This document shows, one piece after another, positions 6,289 through 60,369 of a stretch of 64,000 nucleotides of DNA. This stretch comes from a virus. The stretch's first letter is position 1; the number at the start of each line of letters is the position of its first letter. A program made the position numbers and the translations under genes. The DNA lies in the IMG/VR virus record IMGVR_UViG_3300028048_000053, positions 34,692 to 98,691 of that record; one strand, 5' to 3'. The notes under the pieces are model-generated. The model made no database searches, was not told the origin of the DNA, and was given only the letters and a program-made list of their open reading frames with translations.

Positions 6289-7017
6289 ATGTCTATTTTA
6301 AATAATTATTCAAACGAAGAATTTGCACGAATTGTATCTGAAAGTATTAATTATAGGGATTGCCTCTACGCTTTAGGATATAATTCATATTCAGGAGCGA
6401 CTATAACTTTGTTGAAATAGAGAATTTCAGATTTAAATCTTGACACTTCTCATTTTACCAGCAAAACACCTATTGAACGCTCGGAAGCTAATATTTTTAT
6501 AGAAAATTCAACCGCCGATCAAAAAACCTTGCGTAGATGGTATACAAAAGGCAATTACACCGAATATAAATGCTCTATATGCGGACAAGATCCTTTTTGG
6601 AATGGCAAAGAATTAACACTTATTCTAGACCATATCAACGGAAAACATACGGACGATAGACTAGAAAATCTTCGTTGGGTTTGTCCGAACTGTAATTATC
6701 AATTAGAAACAACTAATGGTAAAAACAAGCAACATAGAGAGCATAGTTTAAATTATTGTATTGATTGCGGTCAACCTATTTCTAAATCGGCAACAAGGTG
6801 TTTATCTTGCGCCAATAAGGCAAGAGCCTCTAAAGATGTTCCGTATGTATCTAGAGAAGAATTAAAACGCTTAATTAGGATCATGCCTTTTACTTAGATA
6901 GGTGAAAAATTTGGAGTTAGCGATAATGCGGTACGAAAATGGTGTGATAAATATTAGTTACCAAGAAAATCTTCTGAAATAAAAAAAATAACTAATGATG
7001 ACTGGAAAAAAATATGA
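6289..7017 (+). CDS. HNH homing endonuclease (reads through 3 in-frame TAG)
   Basis: WNGK...HINGK...NLRWVCPNC HNH motif; the frame continues through TAG at 6409, 6895 and 6955 to TGA 7015-7017. The C-terminus has a GVSDNAVRKWC helix-turn-helix-like tail. Confidence 0.75.
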
Positions 7018-8502: not shown

Positions 8503-8646
8503 CGGCAACAAGAGCAGACCTTCACGTGGTGTTGTTGTTTTTACTAATTGCTCAAAAAAAACTACGAATTTTTTTGGACGAAGTTCAAAAAGATGGTTCT
8601 AATAATTTTTATATGTAATAGAAGATAAAACTAGGAGGAATTATAT

Positions 8647-9330
8647 ATGAAAATTAAATTTGAACATACAGAATTTCCATATCATGGCGGCGCTCTAAAA
8701 GATGAATTAATTAAAATAAGAGGAAATAAATGTGAAGACTGCGGTTTAACAATATGGAAAAATTAGCCTATCCCTCTTGAAGCACATCATATTGATGGAG
8801 ATAGATGTAATAATACTCTTGAAAATTTAATACTTTTATGCCCTAACTGTCATACCTTAACTCCAAACTACGGAGCAAAAAATAGAAACAGAAGAGAATT
8901 TTCTGATGAAGAAATTATTAAATCTTTACAAACGCACAAATCAATTCGTCAAGCGTTGTTCGCATTAGGAATGTCTGATGCTGGCGCAAACTATGAAAGA
9001 GTAAGAACTTTAATAAATAATAATGCAGATAGAGAAATTTTAATTGATAATTCAATAGAAAAACGAATAAAATATTGTCCTGATTGTGGCAAAGTTATTT
9101 CACAATAGGCAACTCATTGTGCAGAATGCGCTAAAAAAGCATCTCGTGTTGTTGAAAGACCAGATAGAGAAACTTTAAAAGAAGAAGTTTATAATACTCC
9201 ATTTACCGAACTTGGAAAAAAGTATCATGTAAGTGATAAGAGTATTTAGAAATGGTGTGCTTATTATAAATTGCCTTCAAGAAGAAAAGATATAAAACAA
9301 TTTACAAAGGAAGAATGGATGGCGTTATAA
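8647..9330 (+). CDS. HNH homing endonuclease (reads through 3 in-frame TAG), paralog of 6289
   Basis: LEAHHIDGDRCNN..LLCPNCH motif; the frame is continuous from ATG 8647 to TAA 9328-9330 with TAG at 8764, 9106 and 9247. Confidence 0.75.
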
Positions 9331-12868: not shown

Positions 12869-12962
12869 GGCGGGTTCGTTTAACGGTAAGACAGCTGACT
12901 CTAAATCAGTCCATAGCCCCCTGAAGGAGCTTATGAAGGTTCGAATCCTTCACCCGCTGCCA
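12869..12962 (+). tRNA. amber suppressor tRNA, anticodon CTA, type II (long variable arm), discriminator G, CCA encoded
   Basis: Acceptor GGCGGGT/ACCCGCT, D-stem GTTT/AGAC, anticodon stem GCTGA/TCAGT, loop CTCTAAA (U33 and A37 present), 24-nt variable arm, T-arm GAAGGTTCGAATCCTTC. Confidence 0.75.
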
Positions 12963-13957: not shown

Positions 13958-14033
13958 GCGCCCGTGGTGTAACGGTAACACAGCGGACTTTTAATCCGTC
14001 AGAGCGTGGGTTCGAATCCCACCGGGCGCACCA
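13958..14033 (+). tRNA. tRNA-Lys(TTT), CCA encoded
   Basis: Acceptor GCGCCCG/CGGGCGC, anticodon stem GCGGA/TCCGT, loop CTTTTAA, T-arm GTGGGTTCGAATCCCAC. Confidence 0.85.
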
Positions 14034-14036
14034 TCT

Positions 14037-14112
14037 GTCGAGGTACTCAAGTCTGGTTTAAGAGGCGGGTCTGCAAAATCCGTATTCGTGGGTCCGAATC
14101 CCACCCTCGACT
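14037..14112 (+). tRNA. tRNA-Cys(GCA), no CCA
   Basis: Acceptor GTCGAGG/CCTCGAC, anticodon stem CGGGT/ATCCG, loop CTGCAAA, T-arm GTGGGTCCGAATCCCAC. Confidence 0.8.
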
Positions 14113-14186
14113 CGGTATCTTATAGGAGCCTTCTCGTGGCGATACTGTTTTAACTAATCCTATAATAATAGAGAGGAGCTGTTTTT

Positions 14187-14837
14187 ATGGCATACATCTA
14201 TTTAATCACAAACAAAACTAATTAGAAACAATATGTAGGAAAAACCCAAAATAGTATAGAATAGCGGTGGAAAGAACACTGTCGAGATTATAAAAAGGAG
14301 CATAACGAAAAACGTCCATTGTATGCGGCTATGCGTAAGTATGGTATTGAAAATTTTGAAATTTCATTAATTGAAGAAGTTTCTCCTGAGTAGAACCTTG
14401 AAGAGCGTGAAATTTACTGGATAGACTATTATCAAACTTATAACAAGGGCTATAATGCTACTATTGGAGGAGACGGTAAATCTTTTTTGCCATATAAAAC
14501 TATACTAGAGTTATGGAATCAAGGACTAAATTGTAAACAAATTGGAGAACAGCTACATTGCGATGCCGGGTGGATTGGTGTGATTTTAAAAAGTCATAAT
14601 GTCTCCCCCCAAGAAATTTAGAATAAGTCCTTTGTTGATAAGAAAATTCGAGTTTGTCAAATAGATAAAAAAACAAATTAGATTATAGCAATTTTTCCAT
14701 CCTATAGAAGTGCCGCTCAAGCAATGCTTGATAAAAAATTAACAAATTGTAAAGTTGGTACTGGAGCTGCTCATATAGGAGAAGTTTGCTCAAACAAAAG
14801 AAAGACCTTTGCAGGCTTTAAATGGAAAAAGGCTTAA
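14187..14837 (+). CDS. GIY-YIG homing endonuclease (reads through 5 in-frame TAG)
   Basis: AYIYLITNKTN-TAG-KQYVGKT...RWKEH GIY-YIG motif plus a C-terminal NUMOD-like region; continuous frame from ATG 14187 to TAA 14835-14837. Confidence 0.75.
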
Positions 14838-14902
14838 AAAACGGCCTATTTAATCAAATTACGGTCTTGAAACAAGACTAAGAGAAAAAGGAGATTTAAA
14901 AT

Positions 14903-15346
14903 ATGAACAAGTTTATGAACGGCCTCAAGAATGAGTCCAACTACACCTATACTGAGAACGGCGCCTTGACTTACAAGTCTACCCTCAACGGTCTGCTCGA
15001 CCTGTTCGCTCTCGGTGGTGCGTATCGTACCCGTACCGATGCCGATGTCATCAATCTCTTTAAGAAAGCCTTTGAAGAGAATGAAACTTATGCTCTCAAG
15101 TGTCTTTTTTATCTCCGTGATATTAGAGGCGGACAGGGAGAGCGTAGATTTTTTCGTGTGGTTATTAAGTGGCTTGCTAATAATCATCCGGACGTTATAC
15201 GACGTAATCTAAAATATATTCCAGAGTATGGTCGATATGACGATTTATATATTTTTATAGACACCCCTGTTGAAGAGGATATGTGGAATTTTTTGTGCCA
15301 TGAAATAGCTGAAGGAATTAAAATTATCGAAAGCATTAAAGAATAA
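14903..15346 (+). CDS. N-terminal part of a split DUF2828/vWA-like gene (TENGA motif)
   Basis: 147 aa, NxxYTYTENGALTYKST motif. The vWA-containing C-terminal part resumes at 16240 after an inserted HTH plus GIY-YIG cassette. Confidence 0.55.
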   Translation: MNKFMNGLKNESNYTYTENGALTYKSTLNGLLDLFALGGAYRTRTDADVINLFKKAFEENETYALKCLFYLRDIRGGQGERRFFRVVIKWLANNHPDVIRRNLKYIPEYGRYDDLYIFIDTPVEEDMWNFLCHEIAEGIKIIESIKE

Positions 15347-15409
15347 TTCTTGGACAGTTTTAAACAAAATGTTTAATCAAAATTTTATATACAGTAGGAG
15401 GATGACAAC

Positions 15410-15589
15410 ATGACTCTTCAAGAAGTGTGTAAAATTTTGGGAAAGAGTGAAAAAACTCTAATTTATAGTTTTAAAAGAACCTAGTTAAACCTTGCTAAAA
15501 AAGGTATCATCCTTCTAAAAACTGGTGTAGGCAAAAATGCCGACTATCAAATAACCTATGAGGAGAATGATACAAATGAAAAAGGATAA
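15410..15589 (+). CDS. small HTH-like protein, leader of a mobile endonuclease cassette (one in-frame TAG at codon 25)
   Basis: MTLQEVCKILGKSEKTLIYSFKRT-TAG-LNLAKKGII; its paralog at 35500 has a TAG at the identical codon. Confidence 0.5.
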
Positions 15590-16235
15590 TACAATATTCA
15601 AAGTATATATTCATAAATTGAAAATAGATGGAAGAGTCTATGTTGGATAGACGAGTTCATCTATGGAAGAGCGCGCTGGCAGTAACGGATATAGATATAA
15701 ACATTGCACCAAATTTTGGCACGCGATTTAGAAATATGGGTGGGAGTCTTTTGAGCATATATTAATTAAGGATGGATTAACTTTAGACGAAGCAAATCAG
15801 TTAGAAGATGAACTGATATTAAAATATAATAGCATTGAAAATGGATTTAATATTAATCGCGGTGGACTAAATCATCTTTGGACAGATGAATAGCGAAAAA
15901 TAATGTCCGAAAGAAATATGGGAGAAAAAAATCCCAATTACGGGAAACCGCGTTCCGAAGAGACCAAGAAAAAAATAGGAGCTGCAAATGCAGTTGCTCA
16001 ACTGGGAAAGCATCACTCTGAAGAAACCAAAAAGAAAATGAGCAAATCTCATCGTAAGCAAGAACCTATTTTATGTGTCGAAACGGGAAATATTTATAAC
16101 GATGCGATAGAAGCCGCAGAATCCATTGGTAAAAAAGCTTCTGCAGCGAATCATATTAGAGAAGTTTGCGATGGTAAGAGATTGTCGGCTTATTCATATA
16201 CATGGAAATATCTTGACAAAGATAAAGGAGAATAA
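15576..16235 (+). CDS. GIY-YIG homing endonuclease (3 in-frame TAG, one at the YVG-Q-T motif position)
   Basis: VYIHKL..GRVYVG-TAG-TS ... AI-TAG-KYGWESFEH; C-terminal NUMOD-like repeats; ends TAA 16233-16235. Confidence 0.7.
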
Positions 16236-16239
16236 AAAA

Positions 16240-17355
16240 ATGAAACTTAATAGTGGCTTAATTTTTAAATGGCTCAAATCCGAAAACACTTCCTCGAAAG
16301 AGTCACGACACCTTGGAAAATTAACTCGTCAACATCTTGGAATGACATCGCGCCAATATAGAAAAATGTTGAGTGAAGGCAGACGCAAAACAAAGGTGCT
16401 GGAACGTCTTATGTCTGCAAACGAATGGGATAAAATAGACTTTTCCAAAATTCCTTCTCGCGCCGGTATGATTTACAAGAACGCGTTCGCGCGTCACGAC
16501 CTCGAGCGTATGCGCCAGGGCGCCACCCAGTCCTACGAGGATTTCGTCAAGGACAAGAACACCAAGGTTAATGCCAAGGCTTTGTATCCGTTTGACGTAG
16601 TTAAGGAGGCTATGGCTTTCGGTCAATGGGGCGGATACTACGGCTATGGCCGCAAGTCTCAGGCCCTCGACAACACTGAGCGTCTGATGGTCAATAAGTA
16701 CTGGGAGAACCTTGAAGATGTGTTCAATGGATACAGCTACAACGGTATCTGCGTCTGTGACACCTCAGGAAGCATGTATGGTGACCCCCTTGCAGTAGCC
16801 ATCTCTATTGCGATGTATTGTGCCGAGCATAATACCGGAGACTTTGCTAATCATTTCTTCACCTTTAGTAATAATCCTACTTTTGTAGAGATTGAAGGGG
16901 TTGATTTTGTTGATAAGGTCAACCGCATTGCCAAGGCTGATTGGGGTGGCAGCACCAATATCGAAGCGGTGTTTGATAAGATGCTCGCTATCGCAAAGCA
17001 GAACCATCTGAGCCAGGATGATATTCCAAATATTATAATTGTTTCGGATATGGAATTTGATGACTGCGTTTGCGGCTATGGAGGAAATGGACGCTGGGGC
17101 CAAGGAAGAGAAGTTAATCAGACACTTTTTGAAACCATTGAAAAACATTGGAATGCAGCAGGGTATCGTCTTCCTTTGGTAACATTTTGGAATGTGCAAG
17201 CACGTCAAAATAATATTCCTATGCGATCTACAAAATATGTAAATTTTATTAGTGGAATGTCTCCGATGATTTTTGAACAAGTTATGAAAAATCTTACGGC
17301 GATAGATCTTGTAATGGATAAACTTAATAATAAACGTTATGAGTGTATTCATTAA
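16240..17355 (+). CDS. C-terminal part of a split DUF2828-like gene, von Willebrand A domain (DTSGSM MIDAS motif)
   Basis: ATG 16240 with RBS AAGGAGAA; 372 aa with ICVCDTSGSMYGDP; the ORF-track 5-prime extension overlaps the GIY-YIG gene. Confidence 0.6.
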   Translation: MKLNSGLIFKWLKSENTSSKESRHLGKLTRQHLGMTSRQYRKMLSEGRRKTKVLERLMSANEWDKIDFSKIPSRAGMIYKNAFARHDLERMRQGATQSYEDFVKDKNTKVNAKALYPFDVVKEAMAFGQWGGYYGYGRKSQALDNTERLMVNKYWENLEDVFNGYSYNGICVCDTSGSMYGDPLAVAISIAMYCAEHNTGDFANHFFTFSNNPTFVEIEGVDFVDKVNRIAKADWGGSTNIEAVFDKMLAIAKQNHLSQDDIPNIIIVSDMEFDDCVCGYGGNGRWGQGREVNQTLFETIEKHWNAAGYRLPLVTFWNVQARQNNIPMRSTKYVNFISGMSPMIFEQVMKNLTAIDLVMDKLNNKRYECIH

Positions 17356-17384
17356 TCATATCTAAAAAAATAATTAAATTTTCG

Positions 17385-17420
17385 GGCAAATTAAGTTAAA
17401 TAATTTGCCCGAAAATTTAT
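17385..17420 (+). terminator. hairpin terminator (GGGCAAATTAAGTTAAATAATTTGCCC)
   Basis: Perfect inverted repeat after the vWA gene followed by an A/T run. Confidence 0.5.
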
Positions 17421-17454
17421 ATATAATAGAAAAATAAAAAGGGGTTTTTAAGAT

Positions 17455-18426
17455 ATGATTATTTCAAAAGAAAAGCAATAGGAAATTGATAGTTTGTCAA
17501 CTATTTCAATAGATATTAGAGCAAAAGATTTAACTGGAAAAAGACAAGGGTCAATCACGTTTTTAAAGCCAGCAGAAAAAATCAATAAAAGAATTTATTG
17601 GTGGGTGATATGTGATTGTGGTAATATTGAAAAAGTTCGAGCAGATAGTAAAATATAGCGTTGTAAAGAGTGCAATGCAAAAAGAACTGGTGAACAAAAC
17701 AGAGGAAAAAATCTTATAGATTTAACCAATCAAAGATTTGGTAGATTAACAGTATTATTTTTACAAAACGAAAGAAGAAATGGTAATGTTATGTGGCATT
17801 GTAAATGCGACTGTGGTAATGAATGTGATGTTCAATCTACAAGTTTAACAAGTGGGAATACTAAATCTTGTGGATGTTAGAAAAGAGAACGTGCTTATTT
17901 TACGACTTTAAAAAAAGATCTCTCAGGAAAAAAATTTGGGTATTTAACCGTATTAAAAGAAACTAAAGAAAGACAATATGGAGGAAAAGTTATATGGGAG
18001 TGTCAGTGTGATTGTGGTAATATTGTCTATCTCAACACTGGACGTTTAACCAGTGGAAACGATACTTCTTGCGGATGTAAAAAATAGTCAATTGGTGTTG
18101 AAAATATAAAAAATATTTTAAATTAGAACAATATTGTATATAAAAAAGAATACAAATTCAATGATTACTAGGAACGAAGGTATGATTTTGCGATTTTTAA
18201 TAATGAAGGATTGGTAATTCGTTTAATTGAATTTGATGGGGAATAGCATTATAAATATACTGGGGGATGGAATGACCAAAAATCATTAGAAAAAAATAAA
18301 TTACACGATAAAGAAAAAAATGAATATGCTTTGTCTCATAATATTCCATTGGTTCGTATTCCATATTGGAAACGAGATAATATCACTCTTGACATGATAA
18401 TGGGAGATAAATATTTGGTAAAATGA
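17455..18426 (+). CDS. Zn-ribbon repeat plus PD-(D/E)xK (DUF559/Vsr-like) nuclease, about 10 in-frame TAG
   Basis: Repeated W.C.CDCGN....SCGC zinc ribbons, then YDFAIFNNEGLVIRLIEFDGE-TAG-HY (canonical DGEQH). Single frame from ATG 17455 to TGA 18424-18426. Confidence 0.65.
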
Positions 18427-18458
18427 AACATACTTATATTTTTGAGATTGAAACAAAT

Positions 18459-18596
18459 ATGTGCGCCGAAAGCACTGAAAAAATTGTTATTAAAACAAAA
18501 ACTCAGAGATTAGCTTATCTCAAATTAAATAAGCTCATGGATAAGAGAAATGATATTCTCTATTGGCACATTAATTCTTGCAAAGAGGTGGTGTAA
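18459..18596 (+). CDS. small hypothetical ORF (45 aa)
   Basis: ATG..TAA with no internal stops; weak RBS. Confidence 0.25.
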   Translation: MCAESTEKIVIKTKTQRLAYLKLNKLMDKRNDILYWHINSCKEVV

Positions 18597-49378: not shown

Positions 49379-50691
49379 TGGACTATACTGCCAAAGATAT
49401 AGTTTCTCTATCTGCTGGAAGAGCTTTTCGTGAAAAATTAGGTATGTATCTTTCCGCTGATAAACAGGAAGCTATTAATTTAGGATTAAGAGAATTAATT
49501 GTAAATGTTCAAGATGAATATGAGGTTTACAAACCAAGTAATCCAAAACTTATAATTACACTCGATACCAAATCCCACGAAATAAATGTAGAAGATAATA
49601 TGCGCGGAATCCCAGTGGGTTTGCGAGAAGATGGAATTAATTCTTTAACTGCGGCATTTCTTATTCCTCATTCAGGAGGAAAACATACTGAAGGAGTTTA
49701 TTCAAGCGCTGTTGGTATAAACGGAGAAGGAAACAAAATTGTATGCCACACAGCAGAATGGCTCGAAGTTGAAGTTCATAGAGATGGAAAGATATATAGA
49801 CAACGCTTTGAATCAGACGACGAAGGCGCTCATGCAATGTCAGATGTGACAGAAACACAACCAGTTAGTGGCACTGGAACTTTTATCTCATATAAGCCAG
49901 ACCCAAAGGTATATGGAGATATTTTTATTGATATAGATGCTTTACGAAAAATGCTGCATGAAATGTCTATGTTCTCTACTGGACTGAGAATTGAGTTATG
50001 GGTAGATAATAAACCTGAAATTTTTTATTCAGAAAGTGGATTAATTGATGGTTTATCTACCGAAAATCGACTTTCAAAACCATTTTCTTATTATTATGAA
50101 ACTCCTGATTGTAAAGTTGAATTAGCTTTACAATGGGTAAGTAAAAAGGGTGAAATTAGAGGTTACGCAAATAATCTTTATATGCCCGACGGAGGAGCTT
50201 TTATTACAGGATTTAAATCTTCGCTAACAAGAACTTTTAATTCTCTTGCTGGAGAAAAATTTGATAGCGACGCTATTAGAAATGTTTTAGACGGCTTTGT
50301 AAGTGTAAAAGTTAAAATGGGACAGTTTACGAATCAACAAAAAACAGCTTTAGCCAATCCAGAAGCACGAACAGCCACTTCAACAGCCATTTCTAATGCT
50401 TTAAAAGAGTATCAACATGACAGACCTAAAGACTTTGCGCAAGTCGTCGAATTACTTACTAAACTCTCGCGTGCGGAAGCCGCTGCCGAGAGAGCGCGTA
50501 AGCAAGTCTTAGAGGCTACTAAAGACATTGAGCGAAATCAGAAGAAGAAGGTCTTTGCCAGTGATAAGTTAAAAGATGCCGAATATTTAGGTCAAAATTC
50601 AACCCTCCTTATAGTGGAAGGAAATTCTGCTCTGGGCGGAATGGCTCAAGCAAGAGACCCTTCAAAATTTGGCCTTCTGGCAATTAGGGGT
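49378..50691 (+). CDS. DNA topoisomerase II large subunit (T4 gp39/GyrB-like), exon 1
   Basis: GyrB ATPase region ending at the conserved ..GLLAIRG|K site; the stop TAA immediately after belongs to the intron. Confidence 0.7.
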
Positions 50692-51946
50692 AAATAAAAT
50701 TGCCCCAACTTACCTAACCAATTCATTATTGGGGTCTATAAAATATTATAGGCTAACGGGGAAACCTGACCAGTTTCTAAAAGTGGCTCTTTTAGTTAAG
50801 ATGAAGGCAATCCCGTGAGGACTTGTGAATTTGTTCATAGAAAAATTAGAAAAGAGGTGAAAAGATTAAATGGAAAAAGGACAAAAATTTGGTTTATTAA
50901 CACTAATTAAAGAAGTGCCTAGACCCGAGGGTAAAAATAGAAAAGGTAAATATTGGTTATGTCAATGCGACTGTGGAAATCAATGTATTAAATATCATTA
51001 TGATATTAGCCGTGGCGATACAAAATCTTGTGGCTGTCTGCAACACCGAAAACCGATTTATGATAAAAACGAACATGAAATTTCTAATCATGCCGGTATT
51101 TATGGTTTTCAAAATGTTTTTAATGGGCACTGGTACATTGGAAAAGCGAAAAATTTATATAACCGATACTGCCGTCATAAAAACGATTGGCAAACACATC
51201 AAGAAAAACAATTTTATCAAGCAATTAAAAAATATGGTTGGGATTCTTTTAATTATTATATATTAAAAGAATATTTAGAAATGCCGACTAGAGAAGAGCT
51301 TTCAGAACAAGAAGAATATTTTATTCAAAAATATGATTCTTATAAAAATGGATATAATGCTTCTTATATAAGTAGTGGAGGATTTTATTCAGAAGAGCAT
51401 CAGGAAAAATGTACCCAGATTTTAAAAAATTTAAACCAAAAACAAAAGAATGAAAATCATCCAAATACAGATTTTACAAAAAACGAAATTTTAGATATTT
51501 TTCATTTTGCAATGTTAGGTGCCCCAGTAAAAGAAATTTATGAGAAATATAAACATCATGACATTTCGTATGAAGGCTTCAAACAGATTTATAGAGGTCA
51601 ACATTTTCGAGATTATTTACCAAATAGTTGGGAGTCAAGACCTGTTGTTGCAACAAATTCAAAACTATGGGGAATAGATGTAATTGATATAAAAACACGT
51701 CTACTTAAAGGAGAAGATATTCAATCTATCTACCAAGATTATAAAGAGAAATGCTCTTTGGCAGTCATACAAAATATTAAAAACAATAAAACTTATAAAC
51801 AAATTCACCCTTGTATCGACTAATCGCGTTGTTGCGATGTAAGATTTCTATTAATACGAAATCTGAAAAGGTAAGCACCATAAACTAGAATAGCCAACTA
51901 GTTGGTGAAAAGTTAGTCAGTCCCAGTAGAAATACTGGATAAGATG
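50692..51946 (+). ncRNA. group I intron (1255 nt) in the topoisomerase II gene, carrying a homing-endonuclease ORF
   Basis: Exon 1 ends GGGGT; an IGS GCCCC lies 10 nt into the intron (P1 with a U.G at the splice site); the intron ends ...GATAAGATG (omega-G); exon 2 restores LRGK|ILNV-type continuity (..IRGK|IINAMSNNEE..EEIKLLLSALN); 3-prime region contains TAGTC. Confidence 0.65.
50870..51823 (+). CDS. Zn-ribbon plus GIY-YIG homing endonuclease (intron-encoded, no TAG)
   Basis: KFGLLTLI...WLCQCDCGN..SCGC zinc ribbon, then GIYGFQNVFNGHWYIGKAKNLYNRYCRHK..AIKKYGWDSFNYYIL GIY-YIG core; 317 aa. Confidence 0.75.
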   Translation: MEKGQKFGLLTLIKEVPRPEGKNRKGKYWLCQCDCGNQCIKYHYDISRGDTKSCGCLQHRKPIYDKNEHEISNHAGIYGFQNVFNGHWYIGKAKNLYNRYCRHKNDWQTHQEKQFYQAIKKYGWDSFNYYILKEYLEMPTREELSEQEEYFIQKYDSYKNGYNASYISSGGFYSEEHQEKCTQILKNLNQKQKNENHPNTDFTKNEILDIFHFAMLGAPVKEIYEKYKHHDISYEGFKQIYRGQHFRDYLPNSWESRPVVATNSKLWGIDVIDIKTRLLKGEDIQSIYQDYKEKCSLAVIQNIKNNKTYKQIHPCID

Positions 51947-52483
51947 AAAATTATAAATGCCATGTCAAACAACGAAGAGGATATTTATCAAAACGAAGAA
52001 ATTAAGCTCTTGCTTAGTGCTTTGAATATTACACCGGGCAAGTATGATGCTAAAAAGCTAAGATATGGAAAGCTAGGTATTTGCGTGGATGCGGACGCAG
52101 ATGGTGGGCATATAGCATTATTAATCATGGCCGCAATGACGTATCTCGCTCCAGATTTTATTAAAGAAGGGCGTTTATGCTGGTTACGTTCTCCTTTGTA
52201 TATTGTAAACAATAGAGGAAATGAAACGTATTATTTTTCCGATGAAGAATACAATAAAGTTCGTGGAAAAATAAAAGGGGAAGTAACTAGAAATAAAGGA
52301 TTAGGTGAATTATCAGCAGAGTCGGCCCGTAAATCCATGTTTGACCCAGAATATCAAAGACTGGACATTTTAGAGTATGACCCGCACGCGATTGAGCTAT
52401 TGACACAGTTAATGGGCTCTGATGTAACTCCACGAAAAGATTTTATTTTTAAAAATGTTGATTTTAGCACAATTTCAGAGTAA
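51947..52483 (+). CDS. DNA topoisomerase II large subunit, exon 2 (Toprim region)
   Basis: KIINAMSNNEEDIYQNEEIKLLLSALN... then Toprim motif LGICVDADADGGHIALLIMAAM; exons 1 plus 2 give 617 codons in frame. Confidence 0.7.
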   Translation, partial: KIINAMSNNEEDIYQNEEIKLLLSALNITPGKYDAKKLRYGKLGICVDADADGGHIALLIMAAMTYLAPDFIKEGRLCWLRSPLYIVNNRGNETYYFSDEEYNKVRGKIKGEVTRNKGLGELSAESARKSMFDPEYQRLDILEYDPHAIELLTQLMGSDVTPRKDFIFKNVDFSTISE

Positions 52484-55158: not shown

Positions 55159-55935
55159 ATGGAAAAAGACGAAATTAATTTAGGAAAAGCAGAAGATTTG
55201 CGAGGATAGCGTTTTGGGTTTTTAGAACCGCAATATAGAACAAAAAATATTGGTAAACATACAGCATGGAAATGTAAATGTGTTAGAGATAATAATTTAG
55301 TATCAGTGAGAATAGACCATTTAAAAGAGGGTAGAGTAATATCTTGTGGTTGCTATAATAAAGAATAGGCTAAATAGAAAATAACTAAATTATAGTATAA
55401 AGGTAAAAATATGAAAGATATTACTGGACTTAAAAGTGGTTTTTTAATTGCTATTGAGCCAACTGAAAAAAGAATTTCTTATGGAGCAAACAATTCTAGA
55501 GTTGTATGGAAATGTCAATGTTTAAGTCCAATACATAAAATACCAGTTTTTTGTGAAGCAACTACGACTGATATTACTACAAAAAATAAATTATCTTGTG
55601 GTTGTATTAAATCGTATGGCGAGGGAAGAATAATAGAAATTTTATTACAAAATAATATTTTATTTGAATAGCAAAAAACTTTTGACACTTGTCGTTTTCC
55701 AAAAACAAATTATTTAGCATATTTTGATTTTTACCTACCAAAATATAATATTTTAATTGAATTTGATGGTAAGTAGCATTATTTATAGAATGCTGGATGG
55801 AATGAGTCATTAGAGAGTATTTAGGAAAGAGATAATTATAAAAATCAATGGTGTAGAGAACATAATATTTAGTTAATTAGAATCCCATACTGGGAAAGAG
55901 ATAATATAACATTAAAGGATATTATTTATGAATGA
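55159..55935 (+). CDS. Zn-ribbon plus PD-(D/E)xK (DUF559-like) nuclease, paralog of 17455 (about 10 in-frame TAG)
   Basis: Single frame from ATG 55159 to TGA 55933-55935; W.C.C...SCGC ribbons; LIEFDGK-TAG-HY ... LIRIPYWERDNITL. Confidence 0.6.
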
Positions 55936-58406: not shown

Positions 58407-58505
58407 TTTTAGGCCAAAAGCTGTTAGTTTATATTTTATAAAACCGATATTATATCGGGAGGAATTTTCTTCCTCCCGATAATTTATATATGGAGGCTTT
58501 GTAAG

Positions 58506-59435
58506 ATGCCAGTAATTGATTTATTAGGAAAGAAATTTGGTAAATTAACAGTTTTAGAAAGAGACATGTCTAAAACCGGTGGAGCAGCATATTGGATTTG
58601 TAAATGTGACTGTGGTAATATTATTTCTACAAGAGGAACATCTTTACGGGACGGCTCAAAACAAGATTGTGGATGCATAAATAAGGAAAAAAGAAGAAAT
58701 AATGTTGACATTACAAAATATATAGGTTAGCGCTTTGGAAGATTCGTTGTTAAAGAAAGAGATCTTACTAAACCTATAGGACATGGAAATTCTTCTTGGT
58801 GGATATGTCAATGCGACTGTGGAAATATTAAGTCCTGTGATATTACACAATTAAAACGAGGAAATATTTAGTCTTGTGGTTGTTTAAAAACTGAAATGTT
58901 AAACAAAAGAAATATAAAGGATATAACAAATTAGCGTTTTGGAATGGTAGTAGCAAAAAAAAATACTTATCAAAAAAGCACCCACAATAGCTACATTTGG
59001 TAGTGTGAGTGTGATTGCGGTAATACTGAGTATTTTGTATCAGCAGAATCACTATTATCTGGAAAGATTCATTCTTGCGGTTGTAATACAAGATCCTATG
59101 GAGAACGAAAGATAAATGAATTATTGCTACAAAATAATATATTATTTATTCAAGAATTTAAATTTTTGGATTCTGATATTTCAAAATTAAGATATGATTT
59201 TGCTATTGTCGATAATAACTATAAGCCAATACGCTTAATTGAATTTGATGGAGAATAGCATTTTAAGCCAAAAGAATGTTTTGGCGGAGAAAAAGCTTTT
59301 CAAATATAGTAGCAGCACGATATGTTAAAAAATCAATATGCTAAAAAAAAGAATATTCCATTAGTACGTATCCCCTACTATGAATTAAACAATATTACAT
59401 TAGAAATGATAATGGGGGATGAATTTTTAACATGA
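58506..59435 (+). CDS. Zn-ribbon plus PD-(D/E)xK (DUF559-like) nuclease, third paralog (about 9 in-frame TAG including two consecutive)
   Basis: Single frame from ATG 58506 to TGA 59433-59435; W.CKCDCGN..DCGC ribbons x3; IEFDGE-TAG-HF ... QI-TAG-TAG-QHD ... PLVRIPYYELNNITL. Confidence 0.6.
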
Positions 59436-60259
59436 CTATATTATATATTTTACTAGGTCTAATAGCGGGTAGTCTTGGGGTATATCTGCTATTAAGGCCC
59501 AAATTAAAATTAACAGTTTAGAAAAATCTTGCTATTGAGTAGGAGAACCAAAAGCTTGAAATCGAAAATGCTAATTTAAATAGCATGAAGAAAGATAAAG
59601 AAGAGTTATTGCACTAGGCCGAAAAAGAATATCTTGCCATGGGTGCCAAAAGAGAGGAAATAAGAGAATCTCTTGAGAATCTAAAGGAGACGCAAACCAA
59701 GGCTGCTGACGATATTTTTGTTTTGGCGAGACAAAATGCTGAGTAGGCTTTTGATAATGAAGTTGAAAGAATTAATCAAGAGCTAGAAGCCAATAGAGAG
59801 CAAGCCGACAAGGAATACAAACAAACTTTAAAAGAGTTAGTTGAAGATTTTTCTAAAGAGGCTGCGGCCGCAGGTTTAGAGCTCTCTAAGCTCAGACAAG
59901 AGTTGGCAGAAACAAAGTCTATAGTAGATAGCGCGGTTGCCGACCGCAAACGAGCCATCGAAATGGAAGAAAAAAGCGACTTTTATAAGCTATAGCTATC
60001 TCACGAAGATATATAGGAGATAGCTAAATTAAGAGAAGTATTACCCTATCTCCGGGACAAAGAGCCTTTAAATAAGGTTATCTATAAAGTATATTATGAA
60101 AAGCCATATACCGATTTGGTTGGCCGAGTATTAGGATAGGGTAAGCGCACTGGTATTTATAAAATTACCAATACTAAAAACGGTATGTGTTATGTGGGAC
60201 AAGCGGTCAAATATCGGCCGGTGAAAAACTTTTCCTAGTTGCTGCTAGGGGTCATTTAA
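59432..60259 (+). CDS. membrane-anchored coiled-coil protein; its last roughly 35 codons encode an N-terminal GIY-YIG motif fragment
   Basis: N-terminal TM helix (MTILYILLGLIAGSLGVYLLL), long coiled coil, then ...GKRTGIYKITNTKNGMCYVGQAVKYR; about 8 in-frame TAG; TAA 60257-60259. Confidence 0.45.
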
Positions 60260-60369
60260 TATTAAATGGCTAACGAGGAATGATATTAAAATATAGAATC
60301 TCGTGGGAAATTTTGTATAATTCATCTTTCACAAGCTTTAAATAGATATGAAGGGTGGTTGAAAATAAC

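Follow-up and report, generated by a model that had tools for sequence, protein, structure and literature searches.

The DNA analysed here, a window of 64,000 nucleotides (nt) from a virus record (IMG/VR IMGVR_UViG_3300028048_000053, positions 34,692 to 98,691), carries two cassettes, at positions 15347-16239 and 35412-36520, in which a small helix-turn-helix (HTH) gene precedes a homing endonuclease gene (HEG). We consider it probable that both are free-standing homing-endonuclease cassettes, borne neither by an intron nor by an intein, and that they are equipped with a portable, probably autoregulatory module composed of the HTH gene and its operator. In the organization that we propose, the unit would have four parts: a leader of 60-90 nt (a GGACAAA box, an inverted repeat and an A/T-rich TATA(TA)AT box), a gene for a winged-helix protein of 54-66 amino acids (aa), a nuclease open reading frame (ORF) and, in the 3' end of the latter, a ribosome-binding site (RBS) supplied to the host gene downstream. 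Cassette 1 consists of a leader, a gene for a winged-helix protein of 59 aa and a gene for a GIY-YIG/NUMOD3 nuclease, and cassette 2 of a leader, a gene for a 58-aa HTH paralog and a LAGLIDADG nuclease gene; all these features, and the host-gene pieces around them, are on the plus strand. The host of both cassettes is a large gut or rumen phage in which TAG is read as glutamine. A contig of 171,985 nt (L053, one of the related metagenomic loci that were fetched and are designated here by L numbers) contains the window sequence with 100% identity, and the phage measures at least 172 kb.

The HTH gene is the part that the two cassettes have in common. The products of the two copies, HTH1 (15410-15589) and HTH2 (35500-35676; identical to the homolog P0311), are 71% identical over 52 aa (BLASTP within the window, E=1e-21), and no third copy was found in a six-frame translation of the window. 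When the cassettes are aligned as DNA, similarity covers the RBS and the first two-thirds of the HTH gene (15396-15520 versus 35487-35610, 73.6% over 125 nt, E=9e-17), and beyond this tract only weaker leader motifs are shared. A first-pass annotation of the window had described an HTH-like gene of about 60 codons present twice, followed by a GIY-YIG endonuclease in one copy and by a LAGLIDADG endonuclease in the other, and our results agree with it on the gene and on both nucleases. At least 450 clusters of HTH homologs, of 54-66 aa, came from a protein search and from scanning IMG/VR and metagenome contigs. Profile searches placed the protein in no family of Pfam, PHROG or NCBIfam: HTH_17 reached 17 and 13.7 bits for a cut-off of 27, NCBIfam E=0.09 and PDB profiles E>=0.12, none of which is significant. 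An AlphaFold (AF2) model, with a predicted local distance difference test score (pLDDT) of 84, is a bare winged helix made of three helices and a beta-hairpin wing. Foldseek searches with this model gave best matches of E=0.19 in the PDB (prob 0.97) and E=0.07 in BFVD, neither significant, the top structural matches being operator-bound repressors of the MarR/ArsR type. The model thus supports a winged-helix fold class. Like small winged-helix regulators (MarR/ArsR-type, and the MerR/excisionase-like HTH_17), the protein is predicted to have three helices and a wing but, unlike MarR/ArsR regulators, it would be a bare domain, with neither a dimerisation nor a ligand domain.

In the related loci, HTH genes whose products are 64-98% identical lie directly upstream of three nuclease classes, in many contexts. 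A GIY-YIG gene follows the HTH gene in the window, in L009 and in L046-L051, and a LAGLIDADG gene follows it in the window lineage, L020 and L052-L057. The commonest partner is a Cys-repeat nuclease with a DUF2726-like C-terminal domain, presumably of the PD-(D/E)XK type (L001-L005, L012-L016, L022-L031, L041-L045). Cassettes occur near genes for DNA ligase, ThyX, RNase H and phosphoesterases, and one stands as an island of cassette size flanked by genes that point in opposite directions. The genes that precede the HTH gene in L004 and L009 are homologous (each ends '...MEI'), and the nuclease gene after the HTH gene is of the Cys-repeat class in the former and of the GIY-YIG class in the latter. 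Related contigs share a conserved 1.4-kb gene block, and cassettes headed by one identical HTH protein (P0334) lie on one side of this block in some and on the other side in others; the similarity of these cassettes begins about 90 nt before the HTH start, and their nuclease genes diverge after the first ~480 nt. As judged from cassette-free relatives, HTH gene and nuclease gene are present or absent together at both window sites. The proposal that the HTH gene travels with interchangeable nucleases is therefore borne out by the same HTH standing before GIY-YIG, LAGLIDADG and Cys-repeat/DUF2726-like enzymes. The first-pass reading of a modular homing unit also stands, although it had been reached without the TAG code, without the conserved, dyad-bearing leader described below as part of the unit and without the HTH genes that, in distant phages, have kept a leader and have no nuclease.

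These last loci raise the question of whether the HTH gene could be an ordinary resident regulator beside which HEGs repeatedly insert, and not part of a mobile unit. In the diverged relatives L018 (3501-3887), L036 (2501-2910) and L038 (2260-2660) the HTH gene, with its leader kept, is followed by a gene for a 66-68-aa non-nuclease protein; in L006-L008 and L019 (for L006, 4001-4789) the HTH is the N-terminal domain of a protein of ~260 aa, fused to a domain of ~200 aa; and leaders of the same type precede HEGs that have no HTH gene. All three observations would fit a resident regulator, and because distant relatives pair with a non-nuclease protein or with the ~200-aa domain, the HTH is older than its association with nucleases. 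However, the cassette-free relatives L058, L021 and L059 lack the HTH gene and the nuclease gene together, cassettes from different contexts resemble each other from ~90 nt before the HTH start onward, and the interior of a DUF2828 gene or of a phosphoesterase gene is no place for a resident regulator. We consider this explanation unlikely, and return to the view that the HTH gene is a portable part of the cassettes.

The leaders show the same organization upstream of all HTH genes examined, with a GGACAAA box, an inverted repeat, an AATTTTT-CATATA(TA)AT box, the RBS and the ATG in this order, and with the stop codon of the upstream gene within a few bases of the GGACAAA box. In leader 1 (15347-15409) these elements are the TTGGACAG box (15350-15357), the dyad TTTAAACAAAATGTTTAA (15359-15376), the TATATACAGTAG box (15386-15397) and the RBS GGAGG (15397-15401). 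In leader 2 (35412-35499) they are TTGGACAAAG (35433-35442), a dyad (35444-35461) that has two mismatches with the cassette 1 site read on the opposite strand, CATATATAATAG (35469-35480) and the RBS (35487-35492). Over 22 distinct leaders, the 9-bp arms of the dyad are complementary in 78% of cells, compared with 30-41% in slid controls, and 7 of the 9 pairs show compensatory changes on both sides; none of 500 shuffles matches the percentage of paired cells or the number of double changes, and one of 500 reaches the covariation score. A role of the dyad as an RNA hairpin or terminator was rejected, the computed stabilities being only 0 to -9 kcal/mol (zero for cassette 2), and for this reason a protein-binding dyad is preferred over a structural RNA. 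The idea that the leader is a general phage promoter was also rejected, as the box-plus-TATA leader (GGAC/GGGC) occurs only four times in the window, each time before an HEG unit.

The dyad varies together with the HTH protein. The identity of residue 19, located in helix 2 of the model, corresponds without exception to the type of half-site: N19 is found with TTC(A/C)A (six leaders, about four lineages), T19 with T(C/T)TA(T/G) (six leaders, about five lineages), and A, Y, G or S with TTTAA. The second helix is the putative recognition helix, by analogy with HTH_17/MerR-type domains. The mutual information (MI) between residue 19 and two symmetric column pairs of the dyad is 1.32 bits, a value reached by none of 5000 shuffles, which ignore shared ancestry. 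Taken together, these properties suggest that the HTH protein would bind the dyad in its own leader and regulate the operon formed with the nuclease gene, probably by autoregulation; this is the best-supported function, and we give it a roughly even chance of being correct. The nuclease start overlaps the HTH end by 14 nt in cassette 1 and by 8 nt in cassette 2, in both cases in the +1 frame relative to the HTH, and because the start overlaps or abuts the HTH stop, translational coupling is suggested. Production of an HTH-nuclease fusion by programmed frameshift was rejected, as the overlap lengths vary, or are replaced by a 2-nt gap, and there is no conserved slippery site.

The tight coupling of the two ORFs, with overlapping stop and start, and the predicted DNA-binding fold of the HTH would also be expected of a two-component nuclease in which the HTH protein is the DNA-targeting subunit that guides the nuclease to its homing site. 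Yet a role of the HTH in target recognition is unlikely, because the protein is conserved whatever the nuclease type or insertion site, with 64-98% identity across unrelated target genes and three nuclease folds. In addition, the nucleases carry DNA-binding modules of their own (NUMOD3 repeats, or Cys repeats that are presumed to bind zinc), and the HTH varies in step with the dyad in its leader, not with the insertion site. A two-component nuclease is thus quite improbable.

Cassette 1 lies within a DUF2828 gene. The upstream piece (14903-15346, 147 aa, free of TAG) matches positions 1-89 of the Pfam DUF2828 profile and ends with a TAA at the cassette edge; the downstream piece (16240-17355, 371 aa, with its own ATG) matches positions 264-395 of the same profile and DUF7788, a vWA-type domain, with 123 bits. 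Joined together, the two halves (518 aa) are 74-75% identical, over 100% of their length, to the top listed homologs, which have 513-515 aa, and nearly all of the 8,000 scored candidates are significant homologs. The first piece aligns with the N-terminus of the 513-aa intact homologs up to about '...LELDVQ' and then has a 7-residue tail, and the second aligns from 'CKTPSLLAKW' onward. Because intact relatives match the joined halves over their full length, cassette 1 really does split the gene. In the syntenic relative L058 the same neighbours flank an uninterrupted DUF2828 gene; blastn does not align the ~200 nt at the junction, where L058 and the window have diverged too far, and the L058 allele reads '...GAGCTGGACGTCCAGTGCAAGACCCC...' in the split region. 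The first-pass suggestion that the products starting at 14903 and 16240 are normally one protein is therefore correct, and uninterrupted relatives, which it had proposed as a guide to the insertion sites, were found for this gene (L058) and for the phosphoesterase gene considered below (L021 and L059).

The nuclease of cassette 1 (15576-16235, 219 aa, with TAG codons at 15648, 15729 and 15891) is assigned to the GIY-YIG class by NUMOD3 matches of 56 bits in two stretches, C-terminal to the catalytic domain, by a match to PHROG 314 'homing endonuclease' (E=1e-35) and by the GIY-YIG motifs of the catalytic domain, which are seen when TAG is translated as glutamine ('KVYIHKL...RVYVGQT...R...H...E...N'); the Pfam GIY-YIG score itself is 18.3 bits, below the cut-off of 22.6, and the L046 ortholog passes with 23.0 bits. 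The 3' end of the nuclease gene holds the RBS AAGGAG (16225-16230) of the downstream DUF2828 piece. The 147-aa piece, the HTH gene, the GIY-YIG gene and a 370-371-aa piece occur in the same order in L046-L050 (68% nt identity across flanks and cassette), and the same split arrangement is found in L051 (87% nt identity), with nuclease orthologs at the same position in L046-L051. Because it is kept in a lineage only 68% identical in DNA, the split is either old or recurrent, with both halves intact. The locus has the features of genes in pieces: the gene is contiguous in relatives, and both pieces are TAG-free ORFs, the second with AAGGAG before its ATG. A blastn search of GenBank phages gave a single 172-nt match for cassette 1, inside the GIY-YIG gene at 14187-14837, and none for cassette 2; there is thus no annotated relative.

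If cassette 1 were a self-splicing intron, of group I or of another type, that harbours an endonuclease gene, DUF2828 would be restored in RNA. The insertion is indeed precise, the pieces adding up to 518 aa compared with 513-515 aa in intact proteins, and genes of the GIY-YIG and LAGLIDADG classes are frequently found within group I introns of phages. Nevertheless, no intron family of Rfam was detected, either at the gathering threshold in the 64 kb or at E<=10 in each cassette; tRNAs were the only RNAs matched in these searches. The upstream piece has its own stop after the 7-residue tail, and this tail is kept in the lineage of 68% identity; the downstream piece has a conserved RBS and ATG; and a leader of ~60 nt followed by two ORFs leaves little room for a ribozyme core. 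We consider an intron very unlikely. An intein does not account for the locus either, since the upstream piece ends with TAA and the HTH gene, the nuclease gene and the downstream piece each have their own start. The locus is best read as a free-standing insertion that left two separately translatable host pieces.

Cassette 2 lies at a metallophosphoesterase gene. Its nuclease (35669-36520, 283 aa, TAG at 35687) matches Pfam LAGLIDADG_3 with 32.9 bits, above the cut-off of 22.5, and PHROG 4645 with E=1e-25, and has both LAGLIDADG motifs in one chain, 'YIYGLFLTDGYI' and 'FWRGVIDGDGSL'; the two window nucleases show no relation to each other (BLASTP E=5.5). Its 3' end contains the RBS GGAGGAGG (36498-36505) and overlaps the start of the full-length phosphoesterase gene (36510-37337, Pfam Metallophos), which is most likely at 36510 or 36513. 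Upstream of the cassette is a short ORF of 35 codons starting at 35320, which the first-pass annotation had linked to the N-terminus of the phosphoesterase. This fragment does derive from that gene: it is the displaced resident 5' end, codons 1-31 (35320-35411), and matches the gene start of the cassette-free relative L059 at 87 of 93 nt (94%) and the full-length copy in the window at 67 of 93 nt (72%). In its translation, 31 of the first 33 residues match the N-terminus of P0122 (counted by eye). Similarity to L059 stops after codon 31, at 35411, and cassette sequence begins there, the last five codons and the stop (35425-35427) of the fragment ORF being cassette sequence. The unit that had been placed at 35430-36520 is real, and its left end has to be moved to 35411/35412, inside the fragment ORF. 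The cassette-free allele of L059 and L021 reads '...GATAAATATAC' followed by 'GGCGGTTATTATTCTCGGCGAT' around codon 31. L059 has kept the short intergenic region of the window, with collinearity at 89% over 34995-35411, upstream gene included; L021 has an RlaP-like gene, an intergenic gap of 233 nt, of which 169 nt are without counterpart in the window, and the phosphoesterase gene.

Compared with L059 and L021, the full-length phosphoesterase gene is a mosaic, 62-77% identical at 36513-36752 and 80-98% from 36753 to ~37110, with a second diverged patch at 37113-37289. Because the remnant is L059-like and the full-length gene is a mosaic, the inserted segment comprises, besides the cassette, a foreign stretch of about 240 nt from the 5' coding region (36513-36752), which rebuilds an intact gene. 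The native remnant thus resembles the relatives and the inserted copy is foreign, as in elements that bring a replacement terminus. The insert was joined illegitimately on its left side and by homology on its right side. In L055, a backbone of the L021 type (90%), with the long intergenic region and a frameshifted remnant of its own, carries a cassette that is 97% identical to that of the window from 35345 onward. This pattern would be expected from homing in which the remnant serves as the left homology arm. A scan of IMG/VR in which the phosphoesterase protein alone served as query gave no pattern match. Downstream, an ORF for a small membrane protein (37318-37668, in the region 37310-37700) is absent from L020, L052 and L054, which are 96-98% identical, and represents an indel.

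The cassettes are readable only if TAG is glutamine, an identity that we infer from alignments. In ORF lists made with the standard bacterial code (14000-18500 and 34500-38000) neither small gene is present and the nucleases are truncated, because of in-frame TAG codons; re-listing with TAG as a sense codon restored long ORFs at many places. Annotation with the standard code therefore misses all the cassette features. Both HTH genes have a TAG at codon 25 (15482 and 35572), where most relatives have a CAA or CAG glutamine codon; the HTH gene of L036 has a TAG at this codon too. Orthologous GIY-YIG genes have TAG opposite Gln or Glu and, in the two repeated motifs of the Cys-repeat nucleases, the residue found elsewhere in place of TAG is chiefly Gln, with Lys or Arg next, and Ser does not occur. 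The first 14 kb of the window contain 16 tRNA genes, one of them with the anticodon CUA (12869-12962, plus strand; detected by ARAGORN, 53 bits with the Rfam tRNA model, and supported by its fold). This tRNA has a variable arm of ~25 nt (type II shape) and G73; such a long arm is unexpected for a tRNA-Gln, and ARAGORN labels the gene tRNA-Pyl, though the TAG positions align with Gln. Decoding of TAG as serine, an idea suggested by the type II shape, was rejected, as TAG aligns with Gln, Lys, Arg or Glu and never with Ser. In-frame TAG codons in conserved genes, a tRNA(CUA) and alignment of TAG with Gln are the properties of a code 15 phage.

TAG codons are unevenly distributed. They account for 46 of 129 glutamine-type codons (36%) in the 12 endonuclease and HTH genes, where CAG is almost absent, for 28 of 117 (24%) in the structural and lysis-like genes of the minus strand, and for 2 of 196 (1%) in replication and repair genes. 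TAG is present in 11 of the 12 HEG or HTH genes, as well as in structural and lysis-like genes of the window; one HEG (50870-51823) has none. TAG recoding in late genes and in one intron endonuclease was described earlier, and delayed expression was proposed (Borges et al., bioRxiv 10.1101/2021.08.26.457843). The phage studied here resembles those code 15 gut phages in the concentration of TAG in structural, lysis and mobile-endonuclease genes, in its near absence from replication genes and in encoding a suppressor tRNA; it differs in the very high TAG share of free-standing HEGs (36%, with CAG nearly absent) and in the long variable arm of the suppressor tRNA. In-frame TAG codons may act as a second gate, making translation of the cassettes dependent on the suppressor tRNA. 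Although the standard code interrupts both HTH genes and both nucleases, it is most improbable that the cassettes are decaying pseudogenes with TAG as a real stop and that the 35320 fragment is a simple tandem or target-site duplication, since the suppressor tRNA(CUA) gene lies 2.4 kb upstream of cassette 1, TAG is the sole interrupting codon, falls at Gln positions and is shared by 11 of the 12 HEG or HTH genes, no frameshifts are present, and the two phosphoesterase 5' copies are 72% identical when the fragment is 94% identical to the cassette-free L059 allele, which excludes a recent duplication within the genome.

Free-standing HEGs are known from T-even phages (seg, mob; 'intronless homing'), with the split nrdA/mobE of Aeromonas phage Aeh1, the split gene 39/60 (mobA) of T4 and illegitimate double-strand break repair as precedents (PMC2988022). 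As in these phages, GIY-YIG-type nucleases are found here outside introns, between or inside conserved phage genes, and are variably present among relatives; as with nrdA/mobE, a contiguous gene is split into what read as two separately translatable pieces; and expression signals of the host gene are embedded in the nuclease ORF. The present elements differ from T-even HEGs in that a separate, conserved winged-helix gene and its leader precede the nuclease, that one module heads three unrelated nuclease folds, LAGLIDADG included, and that TAG is a sense codon; a partner HTH gene with a leader is not described in the review of T-even elements (PMC2988022). The regulatory logic that we propose is like that of I-TevI, which binds an operator overlapping its own late promoter and so represses itself (PMC2988022), in that a DNA-binding activity encoded by the element would act on a site in its own leader and limit nuclease expression. 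In I-TevI, however, the nuclease is the repressor and the operator mimics the homing site, whereas here the candidate regulator is a separate protein of 54-66 aa and the candidate operator dyad is unrelated to the insertion sites. Endonuclease ORFs that carry a replacement gene terminus are known from fungal mitochondria (Allomyces atp6; Glomus atp6, atp9, cox2 and nad3; PMC3630166). Like these, cassette 2 brings a foreign gene end by insertion within a gene that stays intact, and leaves the native end as a nearby remnant that is closer to relatives than to the inserted copy. Unlike them, it is a mirror image, in which the 5' and not the 3' end is replaced, in a phage, with the foreign piece downstream of the nuclease and its RBS provided by the nuclease ORF.

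We infer nuclease activity, homing and HTH binding from these sequence comparisons. In the proposed mechanism, the nucleases would cut cassette-free alleles and repair would copy the cassette, while any nuclease placed behind the HTH module would gain controlled expression. Several points weigh against this interpretation. The evidence for mobility consists of presence/absence polymorphism and the recombinant L055, and the window GIY-YIG enzyme scores below the Pfam cut-off for its class. A consensus scan detected no sigma-70 -35/-10 pair in either leader, with overall counts at the shuffle level, so that promoter activity of the leader is assumed. The cassette 2 dyad is imperfect as a palindrome; binding of the HTH to the dyad is deduced from position, symmetry and covariation only; and the association with residue 19 is uncorrected for shared ancestry, other protein-DNA column pairs, some of them unrelated, having an MI as high. 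Finally, leaders of the same type precede two HEGs that have no HTH gene (8647-9330 and 17455-18426), and the diverged phages L018, L036 and L038 have the HTH with its leader and no nuclease; because of these two observations, the HTH is neither necessary for an HEG nor exclusive to HEGs. As a speculation, since their leaders are of the same type, the two HTH proteins might act in trans on these two HEGs. The window holds the two HTH-less leaders at 8573-8621 and 17375-17429; one reads GGACGAAG...TATATGTAATAG, and the other has a perfect 10-bp dyad, CGGGCAAATT/AATTTGCCCG, followed by TATATATAATAG.

A broader reading of the free-standing cassettes is that the winged-helix gene and its dyad leader form a portable, self-regulating 'driver' into which unrelated nucleases (GIY-YIG, LAGLIDADG and PD-(D/E)XK-like) have repeatedly been plugged, these elements then representing a class of composite mobile elements in TAG-recoded large phages. 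We advance it tentatively, as a serious possibility that falls somewhat short of an even chance. Such a driver would act at two levels, the HTH on its operator controlling transcription and the suppressor-dependent TAG codons controlling translation, and under this control the element could reside in essential or conserved genes and the phage would survive.

Besides those of the two cassettes, the 64 kb contain at least eight endonuclease-like genes, confirmed or probable HNH, GIY-YIG or Cys-repeat/DUF2726-like (6289-7017, 8647-9330, 14187-14837, 17455-18426, 50870-51823, 55159-55935, 58506-59435 and 60367-61275). L058 has a different HEG at the site of 14187-14837 and none at that of 17455-18426; it also encodes a 103-aa protein (718-1029) with a weak Pfam match to the phi29 gp4 late-transcription activator. 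GyrB (region 49378-52483) is another split gene: its DNA_gyraseB domain is encoded by 49378-50697 and its C-terminal domain by 51902-52483, and the HEG that separates them, at 50870-51823, is a chimeric Cys-repeat and GIY-YIG endonuclease gene. In a third interruption (59432-61640), the ORF 59432-60259 ends just after a GIY-YIG start motif, 'GIYKITNTKNGMCYVGQAV', the GIY-YIG HEG 60367-61275 follows, and the rest of the domain ('DLRERWRQH...ENFTFEIIE') lies at about 61390-61640. Two GC-rich hairpins, at 45750-45815 (AGGGACTATAAT/ATTATAGTCCCT) and 58440-58505 (CGGGAGGAA/TTCCTCCCG), both lie just upstream of TTTATATATGGAGG, which in each case immediately precedes a TAG-rich gene; a terminator or processing site combined with an RBS is a possible reading of this arrangement. 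A repeated sigma-70-type promoter (TTGAAA/TTGATT, 17 nt of A/T, TATAAT; at ~3854, 5889, 10311, 12411, 12730, 55032 and 57857) precedes small genes in the tRNA region and elsewhere and differs from the leaders of the cassettes. The two genes that the cassettes invaded seem to be part of an RNA-repair or tRNA-related set (34422-40291 and 14903-17355) made up of an RlaP-like nucleotidyltransferase, the metallophosphoesterase, an RNA-ligase-like gene (39041-40291, an assignment made by eye on its similarity to a neighbour in L002), the DUF2828/vWA protein and the 16 tRNA genes.

In the usual description, a homing endonuclease is a single gene that has to evolve control of its expression by itself, as I-TevI did. 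What is new here with respect to known free-standing HEGs is a module of HTH gene and candidate operator shared by three nuclease folds, the heavy use of TAG and an insertion that brings a 5' gene end. With the phosphoesterase locus, insertion of the 'bring your own gene end' type, which fungal mitochondria are known for, is documented in a phage. If the proposed interaction is true, the HTH protein and its dyad would constitute a small DNA-binding protein and operator pair with at least 450 natural variants and an apparent co-variation between a helix residue and the half-site. About twelve HEGs and three interrupted genes lie within the 64 kb of the window and, if the HTH protein does control the nucleases that follow it, a shared regulator with its operator would explain how catalytic modules can be swapped and how such elements can colonise many sites in one phage.

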